64,000 bases of DNA from Dehalococcoidia bacterium (GCA_965220125.1 CBDCPB010000004.1:1670227-1734226), one strand, 5' to 3'. Shown: positions 5,527-43,326, numbered from the stretch's first letter. Notes: a model not told the origin generated them from the letters alone. Program-made: numbers and translations.

Positions 5527-6102
5527 CTACGCAGCGGCTACCCGCTGCAACTCCACATCGAGCCGCTCGTACACCTCGTCCACGCTGCCGACGCCGTCGA
5601 CATCGCAGAGCGCACCGCGATCGCCGTAGAAGCAGGCGACGCCCTCGAGGCCCTCCGCCTGCTCCCGCAGGCGGCGCTGGGCGACCTCCGGCGCGTCGTC
5701 CGCTCGCCCCTCGATCTCCGCGCGCCTGGCGATGCGCTCCAGCAGCAGCTCCTCCGGCACACGGATGAAGGGCACGGTGTCGATGCCCTGCGACTGCGCC
5801 TCGAGGGCGGTCTGCAGCGCCTCGGCCTGACCGACGGTGCGGGGGAAGCCGTCGAGGATGAACCCCGCCGCGGCGTCCGGCTTGGCGATCCGTTCGAGCA
5901 GCATGCCGATCACCAGCTCGTCGGGGACCAGCTCGCCGCGTGACATGTAGTCGTTGGCCTGCGATCCGAGCGCCGTGCCCTGCGCGACGGCGTCGCGCAG
6001 CATGTCGCCGGTCGAGACGTGGAGCAGGCCGCGCCGCTCCGCGACGAGCTTCGCCTGCGTGCCTTTGCCGGCGCCGATCAGTCCCAGCAGCACCATCTTC
6101 AT
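5527..6102 (-). CDS. adk: Adenylate kinase
   Basis: 191 aa; MKMVLLGLIGAGKGTQA P-loop and the NMP-binding region. Confidence 0.9.
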   Translation of the reverse strand: MKMVLLGLIGAGKGTQAKLVAERRGLLHVSTGDMLRDAVAQGTALGSQANDYMSRGELVPDELVIGMLLERIAKPDAAAGFILDGFPRTVGQAEALQTALEAQSQGIDTVPFIRVPEELLLERIARRAEIEGRADDAPEVAQRRLREQAEGLEGVACFYGDRGALCDVDGVGSVDEVYERLDVELQRVAAA

Positions 6103-35486: not shown

Positions 35487-36206
35487 GTGCGCGTCAGGAT
35501 CCGGCTCTTCGCACAGCTCCGCGAGCTGATGGGCGGCGACTTCCTCGTCGAGGAGTTCGCCGAGAGCGCCGTCACGGTCGCCGATCTGCAGCGCCGCCTG
35601 GAGCAGTCGCGGCCCGCACTGCGGCCGCACCTCCCGACGCTCGCGCTGGCGATCAACGAGGAGTACTGCATCGACGCCTCCACGCAGATCGGCGAACGCG
35701 ACGAGGTCGCGCTGATCCAGCCGATCTCCGGGGGCGCCGATCAGGCGCCGCCGTTCCTCGTGACCCACGAGCCGCTGGACCGCGCTTCGCTGCGCGAGCT
35801 GGTGCGCACCGACGAGAGCGGCGCGGTGGTGCTGTTCGAGGGTGTGGTGCGCAACCACCACGAGGGCCGCGGCGTGGCGCGGCTGGAGTACGAGGCCTAC
35901 GCCTCGATGGCCGAGCGCCAGCTCGAGGCGGCAGCGCGCGAGGTGCTGGCGGAGTTCGAGGGCCGCGAGGTGCAGCGCATCGCGGCGCACCACCGCATCG
36001 GGATGCTGGAGATCGGCGAGGTCTCGCTGCTGGTCGCGGTCTCGGCCTCGCACCGGCGGGACGCCTTCGAGGCCGCCTTGCGCGCGGTCGACCGGATCAA
36101 GGAGACGGTCCCGGTCTGGAAGCGCGAGCACGGCCTCGACGGATCGGTGTGGCAGGAGGGGGTCAGGCCTCGGCCTGCCGGAGCGGAGCACCCCGCGGGG
36201 GCCTGA
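35487..36206 (+). CDS. Molybdopterin synthase MoaD-MoaE fusion protein
   Basis: N-terminal ThiS/MoaD fold ending ...IQPISGG, followed by MoaE motifs (VVLFEGVVRNHHEGRGV, RIKETVPVWKRE). Confidence 0.85.
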   Translation: MRVRIRLFAQLRELMGGDFLVEEFAESAVTVADLQRRLEQSRPALRPHLPTLALAINEEYCIDASTQIGERDEVALIQPISGGADQAPPFLVTHEPLDRASLRELVRTDESGAVVLFEGVVRNHHEGRGVARLEYEAYASMAERQLEAAAREVLAEFEGREVQRIAAHHRIGMLEIGEVSLLVAVSASHRRDAFEAALRAVDRIKETVPVWKREHGLDGSVWQEGVRPRPAGAEHPAGA

Positions 36207-36219
36207 CTGCGGAAGTTCT

Positions 36220-36555
36220 CTAGCCCAACTGGTTCAGGATCACACCGACGCCGATGCTGATCGCGGTCAGCACCAGGCCGAAGCCAGCCGCCATGCCCGC
36301 GCCGAGCTTGAGCAGCAGGCGCGGCTCAATCTGATCGACCTTGTGATCAAGCTGGTCGATCCGGTGGTCAAGTTGGTCGATCCGGTGGTCGAGCTTCCGC
36401 TCGAGGTCCGCGAGCGCAAGCGCCAGGTCTTCCTTCGTGACCAGATTCGAGGGCATCGCAGCCATGTGCGTCGCGAGGGCATCGGCCTGCTGCTCGTTGA
36501 ACCCTGCCGCGCGCAGGTCTTTGGAGATGCTGAGCGTGTCGGAAGCCATCGCCAT
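36220..36555 (-). CDS. DUF1640-like small protein, copy A: N-terminal FDTL-AG-QAEA-like motif, coiled coil with HRIDQLD-type 7-aa repeats, C-terminal TM helix
   Basis: MAMASDTLSISKDLRAAGFNEQQADALATHMAA...HRIDQLDHRIDQLDHKVDQIEPRLLLKLGAGMAAGFGLVLTAISIGVGVILNQLG. Start taken at the MAMAS ATG (36555), with a TATACT -10-like hexamer just upstream. The track ORF starts 9 codons earlier at a GTG. Confidence 0.7.
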   Translation of the reverse strand: MAMASDTLSISKDLRAAGFNEQQADALATHMAAMPSNLVTKEDLALALADLERKLDHRIDQLDHRIDQLDHKVDQIEPRLLLKLGAGMAAGFGLVLTAISIGVGVILNQLG

Positions 36556-36775
36556 GAGTATACGCCGCCGCCTCTGCCACACTTACGCGGGGGTTAGGGT
36601 AGCACAGTCCTGTCATACCATTACGCGCCGGTGCGAGCCTGATCAAGGAGACGGTCCCGGTCTGGAAGCGCGAGCAACGGCCTCGACGGGTCGGTCTGGC
36701 AGGAGGGCGTCGGTCTTCGCCCCACCGGAGCGGAGCGCCCCGCGGGCGCCCTGAGCGCCGGGAGCCCGGAGCCGG

Positions 36776-37153
36776 CTAGCCCAACTGGTTCAGGATCACG
36801 CCGACGCCGATGCTGATCGCGGTCAGCACCAGGCCGAAGCCCCCCACCATGCCGGCGCCCAGCTTGAGAAGCAGGCGCGGCTCAATCTGATCGACCTTGT
36901 GATCGAGCTGATCAACCTTGTGATCGAGCTGATCAACCTTGTGGTCCAGCTGATCAATTCTGTGGTCCAGCTGATCAATTCTGTGGCCAACCTTGAGCTC
37001 GAGTTCTGCGAGCCCAAGTGCCAGGTCTTCCCGTGAGGCCAGGTTTGCCGGCATGGCGGCCATGTGCGTGGCGAGCGCGTCCGCCTGCTGCTCGTTGAAG
37101 CCTGCCGCGCGCAGGTCTTTGGAGATGCTGAGCGTGTCGGAAGCCATCGCCAT
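36776..37153 (-). CDS. DUF1640-like small protein, copy B, with five 7-aa (21-nt) coiled-coil repeats
   Basis: Near-identical N-terminus to copy A; HRIDQLD x2 plus HKVDQLD x3; C-terminal TM helix. Confidence 0.7.
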   Translation of the reverse strand: MAMASDTLSISKDLRAAGFNEQQADALATHMAAMPANLASREDLALGLAELELKVGHRIDQLDHRIDQLDHKVDQLDHKVDQLDHKVDQIEPRLLLKLGAGMVGGFGLVLTAISIGVGVILNQLG

Positions 37154-37364
37154 GAGTATACGCCGCCGCCTCTGCCACACTTACGCGGGGGTTAGGGTAG
37201 CACAGTCCTGTCATACCATTACGCGCCGGTGCGAGCCTGATCAAGGAGACGGTCCCGGTCTGGAAGCGCGAGCAACGGCCTCGACGGGTCGGTCTGGCAG
37301 GAGGGCGTCGGTCTTCGCCCCACCGGAGCGGGGCGCCCCGCGGGCGCCCTGAGCGCCGAGCCCG

Positions 37365-37646
37365 TTAGCCGAGCTGGTGGAGGAGCACCGCTGTGGCTGT
37401 GCCCATCCCGGCAAGGATCAGTCCGACGGCAACCGCCAGGCCCGCACCAAGCCTCAGCAGCAGGCGCGACTCAACCTGATCGATCTTGTGGTTCAGTCGA
37501 GATACCTCCAGTGCGAGGTCTTCCTTCGTGACGAGATTCGTGGGCATCGCGGCCATGTGCGTGGCGAGCGCGTCGGCCTGCTGCTCGTTGAAGCCTGCCG
37601 CGCGCAGGTCTTTGGAGATGCTGAGCGTGTCCGAAGCCATCGCCAT
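37365..37646 (-). CDS. DUF1640-like small protein, copy C, with no internal 7-aa repeats and a divergent TM helix
   Basis: MAMASDTLSISKDLRAAGFNEQQADALATHMAAMPTNLVTKEDLALEVSRLNHKIDQVESRLLLRLGAGLAVAVGLILAGMGTATAVLLHQLG. Only 6 nt separate it from copy D. Confidence 0.65.
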   Translation of the reverse strand: MAMASDTLSISKDLRAAGFNEQQADALATHMAAMPTNLVTKEDLALEVSRLNHKIDQVESRLLLRLGAGLAVAVGLILAGMGTATAVLLHQLG

Positions 37647-37652
37647 AGAGCG

Positions 37653-37901
37653 TCAGCCCAGTTGGTTCAGAAGGATTGCCGTGACAATGCCCATCCCGGC
37701 GAAGAGTAGACCCACGGCAACCGCGAGACCTGCGCCCATCCTCAACTCAAGCCGCGATACCTCCAGTGCCAGGTCTTCTTTCGTCACGAGGTTCGCGGGC
37801 ACGGCAGCCATGTGCGTCGCGAGCGCATCGGCCTGCTGCTCGTTGAAGCCTGCCGCCCGCAGGTCTTTGGAGATGCTGAGCGTGTCCGAAGCCATCGCCA
37901 T
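37653..37901 (-). CDS. DUF1640-like small protein, copy D, shortest form
   Basis: MAMASDTLSISKDLRAAGFNEQQADALATHMAAVPANLVTKEDLALEVSRLELRMGAGLAVAVGLLFAGMGIVTAILLNQLG. Confidence 0.65.
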   Translation of the reverse strand: MAMASDTLSISKDLRAAGFNEQQADALATHMAAVPANLVTKEDLALEVSRLELRMGAGLAVAVGLLFAGMGIVTAILLNQLG

Positions 37902-37966
37902 GAGTATAGGCCGCCGCCGCTGCCACGCGTCCGAGGCGCATACCATACCACAGTCATGTCATACGA

Positions 37967-39328
37967 CTACGCGCCGGTGCGGTAGTCCGGGGCGCGCAGC
38001 TCGTAGGCGGTGGCGACCTGGAGGTCGCTGAGCCGCGAGGCGATGCGCGGCTCCAGATCCGTGAGCGCGAGGTCGCTCGTGATCACCGTCGGGCGGCGGC
38101 CGAGATGGCGATAGTTGAGCAGCTGGTAGAGCTTCTCCTGCGCCCAGCCGCCCGACTTCTCCACCCCGAGGTCGTCGAGGACCAGCAGGCCGGCGTCGCG
38201 CAGGCGGCGGAACAGCGGATCGAAGCGCTCGGCCGAGTCCGGCGAGAACGACGCGCGCAGCTCGTCGAGCAGGTCCGGGGCGGTGGCGAAGGCGACGCGG
38301 TCGCCCTGATCGAGGCGGTAGCCGGCGATGGCGGCGGCGAGGTGGGTCTTGCCGCTGCCGTTCTTGCCAAGCAGCACCAGCCAGCCTGCGGGGCGCTCCG
38401 CCCAGCCGCGCGCGAGGCGGAACGCGCCCTCGAGGTTGCGGCGCTGCTCGCCCCGCAGGCCGTGCCCGCCGGGCCGGAAGCGCTCGAACGTCAGCTCGGC
38501 GAGCCGCTCGCGCGACATCCCGCCGACCTCGGAGTAGCGGGGCGCCGACGTCTCCTCGAGCGTGAAGTGCTGTGCGAGGGCGGGGTCCGCGAGCCGCGCG
38601 CCGAGACGCTCGTCGATCTGCTCGGGCGGCCGCACGCAGGTGAAGACCGTCGGGAGCGCGGCATGGAAGCGGTGCGAGACGAGCTGCGCGAACTTCTCGC
38701 GCGCCCACGGCGTCTCGGAGTAGCTGTCGAGGTCGTCGAGCACGGCCAGCGGCGCCTCGCGGAACTGGTCGCTGAGGCGATCGTAGGAGACTTCGGCGTC
38801 GTCCCCGTAGGAGGCGCGCAGGCGGTCGAGGAAGTCGGCGACGGAGAGGAAGAGCGCGGGGCGGCCGAGCTCGATCGCGCGGTTGGCGATGGCGGCTGCG
38901 AGGTGCGTCTTGCCGCAGCCGGGCACGCCGCTGAAGACCAGCCAGCCCTGGGGATCCTCGGCGAAGCGGCGCGCGGCCTCGACAGCGAGGGTGTAGCGCT
39001 GCTGCGCGAGGGGGTCGGAGGAGCGGCCATGCGGGAGCAGCGTCCCGAAGGTGAAGCGGGAGAGCGTGCCGAGGCGCGAGTAGCGGAGCAGGCGCTCGCG
39101 CCGCTCGCCCTCGTCCTCGCGGTCGGCGCAGCTGCACGGCACGGCGCGCCCGAACTCGGGGCTGGTGAGATCCGCGGTGACCCGCACGAAGCGCGCGCCC
39201 CTGCAGAGCGGGCACGGCGGGTCGCGGTCCACGGCTGCGGACTGGGGATCAGCTGCGGCGGATAACGCGTTCGTACGGTCCGTGATCGCGAGGCTCCGCT
39301 CGCGCATGATCCGCGCCAGGCTTCGCAT
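37967..39328 (-). CDS. Putative helicase loader with an N-terminal Cys4 zinc ribbon and two tandem DnaC/DnaI/IstB-like AAA+ modules
   Basis: ATG at 39328 is preceded by AGGAAGGGGGG. Zinc ribbon CPLCRG...CSC. Two Walker A motifs, GVPGCGKTHLAAAIA and GKNGSGKTHLAAAIA, each followed by a DnaC-like region ending VLDDLD/VLDDLG. Confidence 0.7.
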   Translation of the reverse strand: MRSLARIMRERSLAITDRTNALSAAADPQSAAVDRDPPCPLCRGARFVRVTADLTSPEFGRAVPCSCADREDEGERRERLLRYSRLGTLSRFTFGTLLPHGRSSDPLAQQRYTLAVEAARRFAEDPQGWLVFSGVPGCGKTHLAAAIANRAIELGRPALFLSVADFLDRLRASYGDDAEVSYDRLSDQFREAPLAVLDDLDSYSETPWAREKFAQLVSHRFHAALPTVFTCVRPPEQIDERLGARLADPALAQHFTLEETSAPRYSEVGGMSRERLAELTFERFRPGGHGLRGEQRRNLEGAFRLARGWAERPAGWLVLLGKNGSGKTHLAAAIAGYRLDQGDRVAFATAPDLLDELRASFSPDSAERFDPLFRRLRDAGLLVLDDLGVEKSGGWAQEKLYQLLNYRHLGRRPTVITSDLALTDLEPRIASRLSDLQVATAYELRAPDYRTGA

Positions 39329-40004
39329 CGGCCGTCCCCCCTTCCTCTGCGGCGCCCTCGGACTCCCAGCGGTGCAGGATCGACTCGGCGTAGGCCCAGC
39401 GGCGCACGTTGTGTCGCGCCGCGAGCCGCAGCGCGCGGGCGATCCAGTCGGCCGGCCAGCGCTCCGCGGCCGCGTCGAGGGCGTCCGTGATCGCCGGCGT
39501 GAGCGCGCCGATCTCCTGTTCGTAGACGCGCGCCGGCGCGTCGGCCTCAATGCGCTCCGCCTCCGCCCGAGGCGCGGCGACGCGCACGCCCGGCGGCGGC
39601 TCCAGCGCGCCCGAACGCAGTCGCTCGCGGTTACGGCGTCCCGCGTCCGTGTTCACGAAGCAGAGCGTGTCGCCATCCTCCAGCGCCAGCGTGAGCAGGC
39701 TGCCGCGCGCTGCCGCGCGCTCGATCGAGGGCGTCAGCGCCGCGACGCCGCCGCAGCCCGCCAGCGCGCGACGCAGCGGCTCCTCCGAGGCGAGTTGCGA
39801 GACGCGGACGGCGCGCAGCGTGCCCTTGCGACGTCCGATCGCGTAGAGCGCGTAGAGCGTGACGCGTAGCTCGGCCTCGTCGTCGATGAGCCCCAGCAGC
39901 TCGGTGAAGAACTGCGACGGCAGCGTGGTCGCCGTGCCGCGCGCGACGAAGCCCTCGAAGGGCGTCGCGCGTTCGCCCTCGATGCGCAGGGCCGGGGGCG
40001 TCAT
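39249..40004 (-). CDS. DnaD-domain protein (replication initiation/restart adaptor-like)
   Basis: ATG at 40004 overlaps the dnaB stop (ATGA). C-terminal region VYEQEIGALTPAITDALDAAAERWPADWIARALRLAARHNVRRWAYAESILHRW resembles the DnaD C-terminal domain (YxxxIxxxW). Confidence 0.6.
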   Translation of the reverse strand: MTPPALRIEGERATPFEGFVARGTATTLPSQFFTELLGLIDDEAELRVTLYALYAIGRRKGTLRAVRVSQLASEEPLRRALAGCGGVAALTPSIERAAARGSLLTLALEDGDTLCFVNTDAGRRNRERLRSGALEPPPGVRVAAPRAEAERIEADAPARVYEQEIGALTPAITDALDAAAERWPADWIARALRLAARHNVRRWAYAESILHRWESEGAAEEGGTADAKPGADHARAEPRDHGPYERVIRRS

Positions 40005-41428
40005 GCGAACTCCGGCGGCGGGTCGCGCAGGATCAGGTCCTGGAACGAGGCGGTGCGGTCGAGGAAGCGCACGGAGACGGTGCCGGTCGGGCCGTTGCGA
40101 TGCTTCGCGACGATCAGCTGTGCGATGCCGCTCGGGTGCTGGCGGCCGGACTGGTCGGGATGGGCGTCCTGCCACTCCTCGGGCGTGCGGTAGACGTCCT
40201 CGCGGTAGATGAACGTCACGATGTCCGCGTCCTGCTCGATCGAGCCGGACTCGCGCAGGTCGGACAGCATCGGGATGTGCGGGGTGCGGCTCTCCACGGC
40301 GCGCGAGAGCTGGGCGGCGGCGATCACCGGCACCTCGAGCTCGCGCGCCATCTCCTTGAGCGAACGCGTGATCTTGCCGAGCTCGGAGGCGCGGTTCTCG
40401 CTCCCGCCGCCCATCGCCGAGTGCAGCAACTGCAGGTAGTCGACGATCACGAGGTCGAGGCCGTGCTCGGCCTGGAGGCGGCGCGACTTCGCGCGGATCT
40501 CCGGCACGCTCAGCACCGCCGAGTCGTCGATGAAGATCGCGGCCTCGCCAAGCGTGCCGATCGCGTGCATGATGCGCGACTCCTCGGTCTCGTTGTGCAT
40601 GCCCAGCCGCAGCCGCGTCGCGTCCACGTCCGCCTCGGCGGAGAGCAAGCGCATCGCAAGTTGCTCGGCGGACATCTCGAGGGCGAAGACGGCGACCGTG
40701 CCGTTCTGGCCGACGGCGGCGTTGCGCGCGAAATTCAGCAGCAGCGCGGACTTCCCGACGCCGGTGCGAGCCGCCACGATGATCAGGTCGCCCCGCTTGA
40801 AGCCTCCAGTCAGTTGGTCGAAGTCCATGAACCCCGCGCGCACCGCGCCGACCAGCTCCCCCTCGACGTCCTCCCCGGGGTCCTCGAGGAACTGTTCGAG
40901 CAGGTCGCGCAGCCGCTCGAAGTCTCCGGAGCCCTCGGTGGAGCGGATGCCGAGCAGCAGGCCCTCGGCGGCGGCGATCACGCGGCCGGCGTCGGGGCCG
41001 CCCTCGTAGGCGATCTGGGCAATCTGCCCGGCCGCCTGGATCAGCCGCCGGAAGAGCGCGTCGCGGGCGACGATGCGCGCGTGCGCCTCGACGCCGGCGG
41101 CCGTGAAGTGCCGCCCGACCATCTCGGCGAGGTAGGGCTCGCCGCCGAGCGTATCGAGGCGGCCCGCGCGCTCGAGTTCGTGCGCGAGCGTGGGCAGCGT
41201 GATCGCCTCGCCGCGATCGGCGAGAGCGATGCAGGCCTCGTAGCACCAGCCGTGCTGCTCGCGGAAGAAGTCGCCCGGCTGCAGCATCGGGAGGACGCGC
41301 GGGTAGCTGTCGGGATCGAGCAGCAGGGCCGCGATGACGGCCTGCTCGGCGGAGACGTCATGAGGCGGTAACCCGCCCGCGCTGGGGCGGCGTTCGGGCC
41401 GGAGCTGCGCCGGCTGACCCGTGACCAC
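40001..41428 (-). CDS. dnaB: Replicative DNA helicase DnaB
   Basis: 475 aa; N-terminal domain SAEQAVIAALLLD; Walker A ARTGVGKSALLLNFA; RecA-like C-terminal motifs. Confidence 0.9.
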   Translation of the reverse strand: MVTGQPAQLRPERRPSAGGLPPHDVSAEQAVIAALLLDPDSYPRVLPMLQPGDFFREQHGWCYEACIALADRGEAITLPTLAHELERAGRLDTLGGEPYLAEMVGRHFTAAGVEAHARIVARDALFRRLIQAAGQIAQIAYEGGPDAGRVIAAAEGLLLGIRSTEGSGDFERLRDLLEQFLEDPGEDVEGELVGAVRAGFMDFDQLTGGFKRGDLIIVAARTGVGKSALLLNFARNAAVGQNGTVAVFALEMSAEQLAMRLLSAEADVDATRLRLGMHNETEESRIMHAIGTLGEAAIFIDDSAVLSVPEIRAKSRRLQAEHGLDLVIVDYLQLLHSAMGGGSENRASELGKITRSLKEMARELEVPVIAAAQLSRAVESRTPHIPMLSDLRESGSIEQDADIVTFIYREDVYRTPEEWQDAHPDQSGRQHPSGIAQLIVAKHRNGPTGTVSVRFLDRTASFQDLILRDPPPEFA

Positions 41429-41431
41429 GAG

Positions 41432-42108
41432 TTAGGTCGCTGCGGCGTCTCCGGAGTCCGGTGGGGTCGCGGAACCGGAGGCCACGTCATCCGCGGCGTC
41501 GCCTTCAGCGGCCGACGCCTGCGAGTCATCGATGTAGCCCGGCTCCGACACGTCTTCGGCGTTCGTCAGATCGGGGGTATCCACCCCGGCCTCCGCGCCT
41601 GCCTCGGCAGCAGCCGCTTCTGCGACGAGCGCCTCGGCGGCGTCTTCGACGCCTTCCGGCGCCTCGACGTCGACGACGACGACCTCCGCATCGGCGGTCA
41701 CATTACGCGACAGCCGCAGCGGTACGGTGTAGACCCCGACCTGGCGAATCGCCTCGGGCAGCAGTACACGACGCCTGTCCAGTTCTTCGCCGAGAATCTC
41801 CCCAGCCTTCTCGGCGATGTCAGCATTTGTGACAGAACCGTACAGACGTCCCTGCTCTCCAACGCGCACGGGCATGATCAGGCGGTGGCCTTCGAGCTTG
41901 CCGACGAGCCCTTGAGCCTGCCCGTCCAGGAGCCGTTGCCGCTCTTCCTCCTGAGTGGCGAGCGTTTCCGCTCGCCGGAGCAGAGTGGGCGTTGCCGCCG
42001 CGGCCAAGCCGCGAGGCAGCAGGTAGTTACGGGCATACCCATTGGCGACGGTTCGCACCTCGCCTCGGGTGCCCGATCCCTCAACGGTCTCCAGGAACAC
42101 GACCTTCA
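41432..42108 (-). CDS. rplI: 50S ribosomal protein L9 with an acidic C-terminal tail
   Basis: GTG at 42108 gives VKVVFLETVEGSGTRGEVRTVANGYARNYLLPRGLA.... The tail is ...AEAAAAEAGAEAGVD...DSQASAAEGDAADDVASGS.... The track ORF runs 102 codons upstream. Confidence 0.85.
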
Positions 42109-42451
42109 CGCCGAAACCCTCTCGCCGTGCCGGAGCCGGGACGCCGTTGACTATGGCGACCGCGCGTGCTGCCGGCTTGCTGGTTGTCCAAGGCCCTTTC
42201 AGTTGCTTGCGAACACTCGGACACAGCGCTGTTGACGCTGCACTCTGCCCACAGGCTATCCACGGCCACGGACCACGCGCAATGCCGGAGGCGTGCGCCA
42301 ACCCCCAATCGTCACGGCGTACGCAGTCATCGTATAAGAACGCGTGTTCCGTTGTCAAACGGATGTTCTCAGGCTGTACCATGATTCCCCTGGATCCGGC
42401 GAGCTTCCCGCCCACCCGTGGCGATATGATGCTGTGCGAGTGGAGGGCATC

Positions 42452-42988
42452 GTGACGGACGCAGTGGTCTTCAACCGGCAGAGGTTCCGCGAGGCGCTGC
42501 TCTACGTAGCGCGCGAGTCCGAGGACGACATCCGGTTCGGCCTGACGAAGCTCAACAAGATCCTCTATTTCAGTGACTTCAAGGCCTTCGCAATCCTCGG
42601 GTGCGCGATCACCGGCGCGACGTACCGGAGGCTCGACTACGGCCCCGTCCCCAGCGTGCTGCTGGACGTCCTGTGCGAGATGGAGGCCGAAGGCGAGATC
42701 CAGAGGATCGAGCGGCGCGACCTCAACCGGCTGCAGAAGCGCATCGTCCCGCTGCGATCGCCTGATCTCTCCGTGTTCTCCGACCGCGAACTGGAGATCC
42801 TCGATCGCGTGATCATGGAGTTGGGCGTGCTCGACGCCTCCCAGTCGCGCTTGCTATCTCATCTCGATGTCGGGTGGAGGATCGCCCACTACGAAGAGGT
42901 CATCCCCTACCACTCCGCCTACATCTCCGACCGCCGCCCCACCCAGCGGGAACTCGCCGAGCGCGGGCTGACGCCCGCACCGTGGTGA
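42452..42988 (+). CDS. Panacea-domain (DUF4065) putative antitoxin, second copy
   Basis: GTG at 42452 preceded by GGAGGG. VFNRQRFREALLYVARESEDDIRFGLTKLNKILYFSDFKAFAILGCAITGATYRRLDYGPVP. Lower GC than the flanks. Confidence 0.65.
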   Translation: MTDAVVFNRQRFREALLYVARESEDDIRFGLTKLNKILYFSDFKAFAILGCAITGATYRRLDYGPVPSVLLDVLCEMEAEGEIQRIERRDLNRLQKRIVPLRSPDLSVFSDRELEILDRVIMELGVLDASQSRLLSHLDVGWRIAHYEEVIPYHSAYISDRRPTQRELAERGLTPAPW

Positions 42989-43326
42989 GCGGACCAGACG
43001 ACTCGCCTGACCGGCGCGAGCCCGGCGACAACGCCAGCGTTGCATACACGCCCGCATTCGAGGCTGATCTCGCCACGCTCGTGCCCAACCAGGCTCAGCG
43101 CTTCTACTTCATGCGCGACGGCATCGAGTACCGCCTCACCCACGCAATCGATCTCCAGCAAGTCACCCCACAGCAGGGCTATCTGATCACCGAGGAGCAC
43201 ATCGCCGGCATGCCAGAGTGCGTCATCTGGTTCACGATCGCCGACGCCGAGGGCAAGAGTCCTCAGTACACACTCGACAGCATCCGCGTGCGGCAGCCCT
43301 CGCACGAGGAGGAAGATGACGCCTGA
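42985..43326 (+). CDS. Small protein overlapping the Panacea gene (GTGA), candidate toxin; faint RelE/ParE-like pattern
   Basis: 113 aa from the GTG at 42985: VSGPDDSPDRREPGDNASVAYTPAFEADLATLVPNQAQRFYFMRDGIEYRL...CVIWFTIADAEGKSPQYTLDSIRVRQ. Confidence 0.45.
   Translation: MSGPDDSPDRREPGDNASVAYTPAFEADLATLVPNQAQRFYFMRDGIEYRLTHAIDLQQVTPQQGYLITEEHIAGMPECVIWFTIADAEGKSPQYTLDSIRVRQPSHEEEDDA

Follow-up and report, generated by a model that had tools for sequence, protein, structure and literature searches.

All characterised loaders of the replicative helicase carry one AAA+ module per chain, and the question raised by the locus described here is how a loader with two of them on one polypeptide (and from one to four in its relatives) would be built and would work. 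The locus lies in a stretch of 64,000 nucleotides (nt) of a Dehalococcoidia bacterium, phylum Chloroflexota (GCA_965220125.1 CBDCPB010000004.1:1670227-1734226; hereafter the window), where four genes follow each other on the minus strand in the order rplI, dnaB, a gene for a DnaD-domain protein and the gene for the tandem-AAA+ protein that is our main subject. We consider it probable that this is a chromosomal helicase-loading operon, in which rplI-dnaB is followed by a DnaD-domain adaptor and by a DnaC/DnaI-type loader with an old internal duplication, its second module (module 2) being catalytic and its first (module 1) impaired in hydrolysis. An earlier note on this DNA had described the last product as a protein of 453 amino acids (aa) with a CxxC...CxC ribbon and two Walker A/B modules, and all of these elements are found where it placed them:

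37967..39328, minus strand: tandem-AAA+ helicase loader gene, 453 aa plus stop, recognized by its continuous open reading frame (ORF), domain matches and homologues
39299..39328, minus strand: N-terminal motif MRSLARIMRE of the loader, conserved across the family
39128..39214, minus strand: zinc ribbon, residues 39-67, C39-x2-C42...C65-x-C67, with conserved Cys
38522..39076, minus strand: AAA+ module 1, residues 85-269, with Walker A K140, Walker B D198/D199, box VII R241/R245 and V232 at sensor I, without PDYR
37970..38515, minus strand: AAA+ module 2, residues 272-453, with Walker A K327, Walker B D385/D386, sensor I D420, box VII R428/R432 and sensor II R450

The loader ORF is free of stops and carries GVPGCGKTHLAAAIA...VLDDLD in module 1 and GKNGSGKTHLAAAIA...VLDDLG in module 2. 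The best Pfam family on the protein was IstB_IS21 (E 2.1e-27), which matched two separate stretches, as Bac_DnaA did, and the NCBIfam model PRK08116 was passed (193.5 against a cutoff of 189), also in two stretches. The boundaries of the modules given above were taken from a module hidden Markov model (HMM), and identity between the two is 38%. It had been left open whether a domain search would find one AAA+ module or two, and whether the ORF could be two genes; both IstB_IS21 and the module HMM find two, and the gene is single, with no stop in 37967-39328 and an ORF that is continuous in hundreds of genomes. In an alignment of 88 sequences the Walker A and B residues of both modules (K140/T141 with D198/D199, K327/T328 with D385/D386) were invariant or nearly so, and R241/R245 and R428/R432 were invariant. 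The junction between the modules is short and also conserved (G269 invariant, M271 in at least 90%), and it is modelled with a predicted local distance difference test (pLDDT) score of 88-96 in an AlphaFold2 (AF2) model of the loader whose overall pLDDT is 88. The order of strands and helices in this model is identical in both modules. Two predicted helices separate strand 2 from the Walker B strand, at residues 163-172 and 182-191 in module 1 and 350-359 and 369-378 in module 2, and in the model these pairs match the initiator-specific motif in layout and position.

Taken singly, the modules superpose on Aquifex aeolicus DnaC (3ecc), DnaI (2w58), Escherichia coli DnaC (6qem), IstB (8q3w) and DnaA (2hcb) with a root-mean-square deviation (rmsd) of 2.8-4.5 A. 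When the whole chain was searched with Foldseek the matches were p97/Cdc48/NSF, at an rmsd of 10-17 A and a template modelling (TM) score of 0.24-0.44, since those proteins too carry two tandem modules. A stacked D1/D2 double ring of the p97 type was ruled out by this large whole-chain rmsd and by the better fit of the modules to structures of the initiator clade.

In front of the modules, the zinc ribbon has C65 and C67 invariant and C39 and C42 conserved in at least 90% of the 88 sequences, with short strands at 47-49 and 62-64 in the AF2 model. Some 35 aa before the CxxC lies the N-terminal motif, whose commonest forms in the family are MESLGDILKR, MEHIGDILRR and MKRLGEILSK; the pattern was matched in 58 of 79 loci, and most of the others have close variants of it. 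Similar N-termini are those of E. coli DnaC (MKNVGDLMQR) and Bacillus subtilis DnaI (MEPIGRSLQG), and a consensus M-[EK]-x-[LIV]-G-[DE]-[IL]-[LM]-x-[RK], of 10 residues only, can be written for the Chloroflexota loaders together with E. coli DnaC (L086 3947-3976) and B. subtilis DnaI. Residues 8-11 of E. coli DnaC touch DnaB (PMC4705694). By analogy, the shared motif may be a common helicase-contact peptide, which we offer as a lead.

Are both modules then equivalent? In E. coli DnaC the residues K112, E170, N203, R216, R220 and R237 are all required for ATPase activity, and the mutant in sensor I (N203) was the worst in loading; the same work provides the definition of box VII that we used, a finger plus a second arginine four residues upstream (PMC8213410). 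We scored the equivalent positions in 156 proteins of the query type among 271 top-scoring relatives, which are not a random sample and whose subgroups were set by HMM score and not by a tree. The Walker A Lys was found in both modules of every protein (156/156 in each), the Walker B pair DD in 148/156 first and 152/156 second modules, and the arginine finger in 150/156 and 156/156, respectively. At sensor I, module 1 had no Asn in any of the 156 (V47, D26, S23, A19, E18), and module 2 had Asn in 97 and Asp in 30 of them, the query with D420 belonging to the latter and the family consensus being Asn. As for sensor II, PDYR is absent from module 1 in 154/156 and the Arg is present in module 2 in 155/156. 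Judged by these residues, the loader is a protein with one complete ATP site (module 2) and one incomplete (module 1). The suspicion of the earlier note that one module might be degenerate thus applies to module 1, which across the family is without the sensor I Asn and PDYR but keeps Walker A/B and the finger; the Walker B and arginine-finger residues are retained in each module.

A second subgroup of 46 proteins, of which one member comes from a cluster labelled Anaerolineales, has the reverse pattern, with a canonical module 1 and a degenerate module 2. In both subgroups and in both modules the equivalents of the tetrad K143/F146/S177/Y179, by which DnaC binds single-stranded DNA (ssDNA), are 92-100% conserved, and from this conservation both modules probably bind ssDNA.

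The gene located between dnaB and the loader codes for a protein whose residues 159-217 match the DnaD domain (PF07261, 23.7 bits against a cutoff of 22; TIGR01446, 31.6 against 24.95) and contain Y205-AES-I209-LHR-W213, that is, the YxxxIxxxW motif that is the hallmark of the DDBH2 domain of DnaD and of the DnaB of B. subtilis (PMC2978336). Among 55 aligned homologues W203, Y205, L210 and W213 were invariant, and 210 homologues are named 'DnaD domain protein' by their sources. At the level of sequence, therefore, we regard the DDBH2 domain as established. The AF2 model (pLDDT 83) has a helical C-terminal DDBH2/DnaD domain at residues 157-216 and, at about 30-131, an N-terminal domain of helices and a beta hairpin that is winged-helix-like (pLDDT >90). 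The top fold match was the full-length DnaD model 9a5c_B (probability 0.98, E only 2.4e-3), and most of the other listed matches were winged-helix DNA-binding proteins, with weak E-values. A DDBH1-like N-terminal domain is thus likely from the model.

The homology search with the loader listed 120 cluster representatives, 58-92% identical and 386-485 aa long except for P0001 (684 aa). A scan of one genome per species of the Genome Taxonomy Database (GTDB) gave at least 591 confirmed matches, i.e., the loader is encoded in at least 591 GTDB species genomes, and 80 loci were kept. Almost all of these 80 are metagenome-assembled genomes (MAGs) of Dehalococcoidia/Chloroflexota, with full-length matches down to 43% identity, and the order dnaB, DnaD-domain gene, loader gene was found in ca. 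75 of the 80, down to the same 43% loader identity, so that the synteny that the earlier note had wished to see in related genomes exists. In a homology search with a Dehalococcoidales member, all of the best 120 matches were MAG or uncultured, none having a cultured source. One of the loci (L016, VFZH01000120.1) bears the label Acidimicrobiia (Actinomycetota); its tandem loader is 63% identical, in the same synteny. That a Chloroflexota contig was mis-binned is more likely here than an occurrence beyond the phylum. In three cases (P0001, P0398 and P0454, 638-684 aa) the gene calls of MAGs merge the DnaD-domain protein and the loader, P0454 having PF07261 plus the AAA+ domains. We considered P0001 as a DnaD-loader fusion and rejected it, as it is really an out-of-frame merge, probably from an indel error.

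The number of modules per protein was variable. Among the best 271 relatives there were two in 242 and one in 25, and three HMM matches were found in 3 and four in 1; at least one of the three-match cases (P0155) is a two-module protein with its second module split by the HMM. The order dnaB, DnaD-domain gene, loader is shared by a one-module relative (P0219, L084), also with a zinc ribbon, and by a two-module one (P0130, L082/L083). The three-module relative (P0122, L085 1620-5382) lies directly behind rplI-dnaB without a DnaD-domain gene, on a scaffold of 5.7 kb, and the four-module one (P0121, L081), of 827 aa, follows dnaB and the DnaD-domain gene on a 64-kb contig. Relatives with one, two, three and four modules all have a zinc ribbon of similar kind, the gene after dnaB and equal orientation. 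With only 40-66% identity among them, the four modules of P0121 cannot be put down to an assembly repeat. In P0122 the first two modules are 85% identical, and there is an additional repeated segment at its C-terminus. Its scaffold is short, so a misassembly is possible there. The three-module and the four-module forms come each from a single cluster. A nearest-neighbour comparison assigns the extra copies to the module 1 type and leaves the final module in the module 2 type, which suggests an old duplication with later addition of module-1-type units. The two subgroups may have duplicated their modules independently, the history having been read from nearest neighbours and not from a tree. 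The dnaB that adjoins the four-module loader contains an intein (PF14890, L081 2433-4259).

How does this loader compare with known systems? The NCBIfam equivalog models for DnaC (108 against 357) and DnaI (90.7 against 228) were both missed, and DnaI_N was absent among the best 25 of 42 Pfam matches, all of which were NTPase families. As judged by these scores, the loader belongs to the broad DnaC/DnaI/IstB family (PRK08116) and is an orthologue of neither DnaC nor DnaI; with both equivalog cutoffs missed and DnaI_N not among the listed matches, we take it as a separate lineage, which fits the one independent acquisition of a dnaC/dnaI-type gene reported for the Chloroflexi (PMC5109545). The label of a Firmicute-style module, used in the earlier note, was therefore right in kind (a DnaD-domain protein plus a DnaC/DnaI-type ATPase) but not in lineage, which is not that of DnaI. 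With E. coli DnaC (6qel/6qem) the loader shares the AAA+ clade, Walker A/B, the arginine coupler and finger four residues apart, sensor I and the C-terminal sensor II (these two in module 2 only), the ssDNA tetrad, the fold (3.8 A), a sequence match (E 1.3e-12) and the N-terminal motif; however, DnaC has one AAA+ module and a helical, zinc-free N-terminal domain, its gene is not beside dnaB and it has no DnaD-domain partner. The B. subtilis system is alike in that DnaI has a zinc-dependent N-terminal domain before the AAA+ module, which there binds the helicase (PMC2673437), and an N-terminus beginning MEPIG, and in the DnaD-family partner with YxxxIxxxW (PMC2978336). It differs in the zinc being held by Cys3His in a fold of its own of ca. 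100 aa, instead of the compact CxxC...CxC ribbon found here, and in the single AAA+ module, while in the Chloroflexota locus a single DnaD-family gene was seen and dnaB is inside the operon. IstB (5bq5, 8q3w) gives the best Pfam family and a similar fold (4.5 A), but it has a single module, and the loader here has no IstA partner, is below the IS21_help_AAA cutoff and sits in a replication context. Several AAA+ modules of which only some sites are catalytic are also found in p97/NSF/ClpB type II, ORC-Cdc6, RFC and dynein, which belong to other AAA+ clades; besides, in ORC and RFC the asymmetry comes from separate subunits and not from a covalent repeat.

In the literature searched we found no tandem or duplicated DnaC/DnaI loader, and on Chloroflexi loaders only PMC5109545, the text of which contains no 'tandem', 'duplicat*' or 'DnaD'. 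The sequences are public under generic names; their architecture, asymmetry and variable copy number were not found described in the same literature. A covalently duplicated loader is thus unusual, as the earlier note had it, when set against the characterised loaders, but not within the Chloroflexota, where the tandem is the common state. This architecture, of which the literature searched gave us no description, is that of the loader in an entire bacterial class and probably in much of a phylum. Current labels are 'ATP-binding protein', 'AAA family ATPase', 'DnaC' and once 'DnaA', and a consistent naming is now possible. The work on DnaC and DnaI leaves open how many ATP sites fire, in which order, and why six loaders are needed per helicase. 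With a fixed-order two-module loader, one of whose modules is without the hydrolysis sensors, such site-specific questions become testable without engineered concatemers.

If the operon is a helicase-loading one, as we believe, the N-terminal peptide and the zinc ribbon, which lie where a helicase-binding domain is expected, would anchor the loader to the C-terminal face of DnaB, by analogy with DnaC and DnaI, and the two modules would be neighbours in a head-to-tail spiral like that of DnaC on ssDNA. The arginine finger of each module would complete the neighbouring ATP site, with several chains assembling; since both fingers are conserved, each site should be completed by a neighbour, and this calls for more than one chain. 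The site of module 2 would be the hydrolytic switch for the release of the loader, and that of module 1 would bind ATP mainly for holding the assembly, like the non-catalytic sites of ORC or of the clamp loader. The DnaD-domain protein would connect the complex with DnaA/oriC or with restart sites or intermediates, and translational coupling, through an ATGA junction and an 80-nt overlap between the genes, might help to fix the ratios of the subunits. The stoichiometry and the mechanism of the tandem loader are what we infer from its sequence. A more specific version, about which we are doubtful, would be that the loader spiral by which Chloroflexota open DnaB is made of covalently linked AAA+ modules, one to four per chain, the two-module form providing three chains and six modules with alternating catalytic and non-catalytic sites, and three helicase-binding N-termini that would match the trimer-of-dimers of DnaB; it would be a natural ORC-like asymmetric loader in bacteria, the position of the degenerate module having been chosen independently, N-proximal in the Dehalococcoidia type and C-terminal in the Anaerolineales type.

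There are several observations that weigh against our interpretation. A simple model with six modules for each DnaB hexamer does not accommodate the three- and four-module relatives, and because of this misfit three chains to six DnaB, attractive as the ratio is, are not part of the reading that we favour. The predicted TM score of the AF2 loader model is only 0.62, which concerns the relative orientation of the modules. The assignment of sensor I is alignment-dependent, and phmmer against DnaC moves box VII of module 1 by four residues; module 1 also has a semi-conserved PRY that is a possible sensor II, and the Asp found at its sensor I in 26/156 is the residue that DnaA is said to use at that position.

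Against the helicase-loading operon with a spiral of several chains there is, among others, an alternative that we find rather unlikely, namely that the two modules pair up inside a single chain, as a closed, self-contained dimer that acts singly on DnaB, with module 1 as a regulator or cap limiting oligomerisation. The junction between them is indeed short, conserved and confidently modelled, a copy number that goes from 1 to 4 speaks against a fixed six-module assembly, and IstB, a paralogue with one structure (8q3w) among the fold matches, works as dimers inside a larger clamshell. However, a closed pair needs only one arginine finger, or two if its packing is symmetric, and both are near-invariant (150/156 and 156/156); symmetric packing would differ from the head-to-tail mode of the loader clade, and ssDNA-binding residues in both modules are what is expected of a continuous spiral. 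That the modules have two different functions, module 2 being the loader and module 1 either a co-loader or remodeller like the DnaB of B. subtilis or an Hda-like regulator directed at DnaA, seems to us improbable. It would account for a single DnaD-family gene here as opposed to two (DnaD and DnaB) in Firmicutes, for the weak Bac_DnaA and Hda matches on both modules and for the different constraints on module 1. Nevertheless, the Hda (61 against 195) and DnaA (92 against 344) scores are far under their cutoffs, the ssDNA-binding and arginine-finger residues are alike in both modules, and it is the C-terminal module that degenerates in the second subgroup, so that the split appears to be a generic one between catalytic and non-catalytic modules and not a function tied to position.

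We see very little chance that the gene belongs to a mobile element, as an IS21-type IstB transposition helper or part of a prophage replication module, even if IstB_IS21 is the best Pfam family, pairs of DnaD-domain and DnaC-like genes are typical of phage replication modules and an origin by domestication of phage genes has been proposed for loaders of the DnaC/DnaI type (PMC5109545). The nearest phage matches are DnaC-like genes of Bacillus phages, at ca. 31% identity, but no two-module form was found among 50,697 phage records, and a phage origin of the tandem form was discarded, both modules of the query matching one single-module phage gene of ca. 560 bp. Nor is there an IstA transposase nearby, the IS21_help_AAA equivalog reaching only 125.8 of the 200 required, and the rplI-dnaB context with its housekeeping genes and vertical synteny across the class is that of a chromosome; of flanking att sites, integrase or transposase genes and patchy presence among close relatives, none was seen. 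To an artefact, by which two adjacent single-module genes (or a gene and a pseudogene) would have been joined through an error in sequencing or assembly or through an overlooked stop, we give practically no credit. Some MAGs do have frameshift merges here, like P0001, and the high G+C produces long open frames. Against this, the ORF is continuous in the window, in the 120 listed cluster representatives, which come from many sources, and in at least 591 species genomes, the junction is conserved as protein, with no requirement for a start or Shine-Dalgarno signal, and 242 of the 271 relatives have two modules. The fused-gene artefact was rejected on these grounds: the continuous ORF, the homologues, the genome scan and the module counts.

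The remaining features of the operon, all on the minus strand, are as follows:

41432..42109, minus strand: rplI, for ribosomal protein L9, whose C-terminal tail is long and acidic (Pfam Ribosomal_L9_N and L9_C)
40001..41428, minus strand: dnaB, replicative DNA helicase, 475 aa (TIGR00665, Pfam DnaB and DnaB_C)
40001..40004, minus strand: ATGA junction, dnaB stop overlapping the start of the DnaD-domain gene (sequence gcATGAcg)
39249..40004, minus strand: DnaD-domain gene, 251 aa (PF07261, TIGR01446)
39336..39346, minus strand: Shine-Dalgarno-like AGGAAGGGGGG, 7 nt upstream of the loader ATG
39249..39328, minus strand: overlap of 80 nt, out of frame, shared by the DnaD-domain gene (its 3' end) and the loader gene (its 5' end)

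The G+C of the window is 66-74%, which explains the long spurious ORFs found on both strands, and given their abundance the real genes were chosen by homology. The start of rplI is approximate, having been set at the beginning of the L9_N match (Ribosomal_L9_N and L9_C cover residues 103-248 of the ORF 41432-42415), and there is a promoter-like site near it at 42358-42329. The dnaB product gave 460.7 bits with TIGR00665 (cutoff 385) and Pfam DnaB and DnaB_C (E 2.4e-94), and it was below the cutoff of the phage_DnaB model (345 against 499); the gene sits after rplI and passes the equivalog model of the chromosomal DnaB. The coupling of a DnaD-like gene to dnaB through ATGA, claimed in the earlier note, can be read directly as gcATGAcg at 40001-40004, with both DnaD models above their cutoffs. 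Its other claims about gene starts hold as well: the 80-nt overlap (39249-39328) and the strong Shine-Dalgarno sequence, AGGAAGGGGGG 7 nt upstream of the loader, are both present. The loader frame is open further upstream, as far as a TTG at 39550; the ATG at 39328 was taken as the start because the N-terminal peptide encoded from there is conserved across the family, which backs the start originally chosen.

An overlap of ca. 45-85 nt between the DnaD-domain and loader genes recurs in many related loci (the DnaD match ending near 6080 and the loader starting at 6001). Across L001-L080 (around 6001-6083) the conserved peptides are staggered between the two frames. The N-terminal motif of the loader overlies a poorly conserved linker of the DnaD-domain protein, the conserved tail RDHGPYERVIRRS of the latter overlies the disordered residues 13-27 of the loader, and the GAT codon of the near-invariant D226 of the DnaD-domain protein supplies the A and the T of the loader ATG.

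The neighbourhood of rplI-dnaB holds the housekeeping genes purL, moaD/E and pfkB. No tRNA genes were found, and no terminator-like sites in 36000-43000. Between rplI and purL, and on the strand opposite to rplI, there is a gene with a SocA/Panacea antitoxin domain (PF13274, E 5e-16) at 42344-42988 on the plus strand, which may form a toxin-antitoxin pair with the small ORF that follows it.

Directly downstream of the loader, at 36220-37946 on the minus strand, there are four tandem paralogues of 93-134 aa. They have an invariant N-terminus (MAMASDTLSISKDLRAAGFNEQQADALATHMAA), a varying number of DH[RK][IV]DQL heptads and a hydrophobic C-terminus, i.e., they are small coiled-coil genes, contained within segmental repeats of ca. 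598 bp, and none of them had a Pfam family above cutoff. The gene was found only in the closest relatives (L001-L004 and L014), in one or two copies. The last 74 nt of a moaD-moaE fusion gene on the plus strand (36130-36203) are copied inside the repeats, at 36677-36750 and 37275-37348, with 84-85% identity, and hence the segmental duplication carried along a fragment of the adjoining gene.

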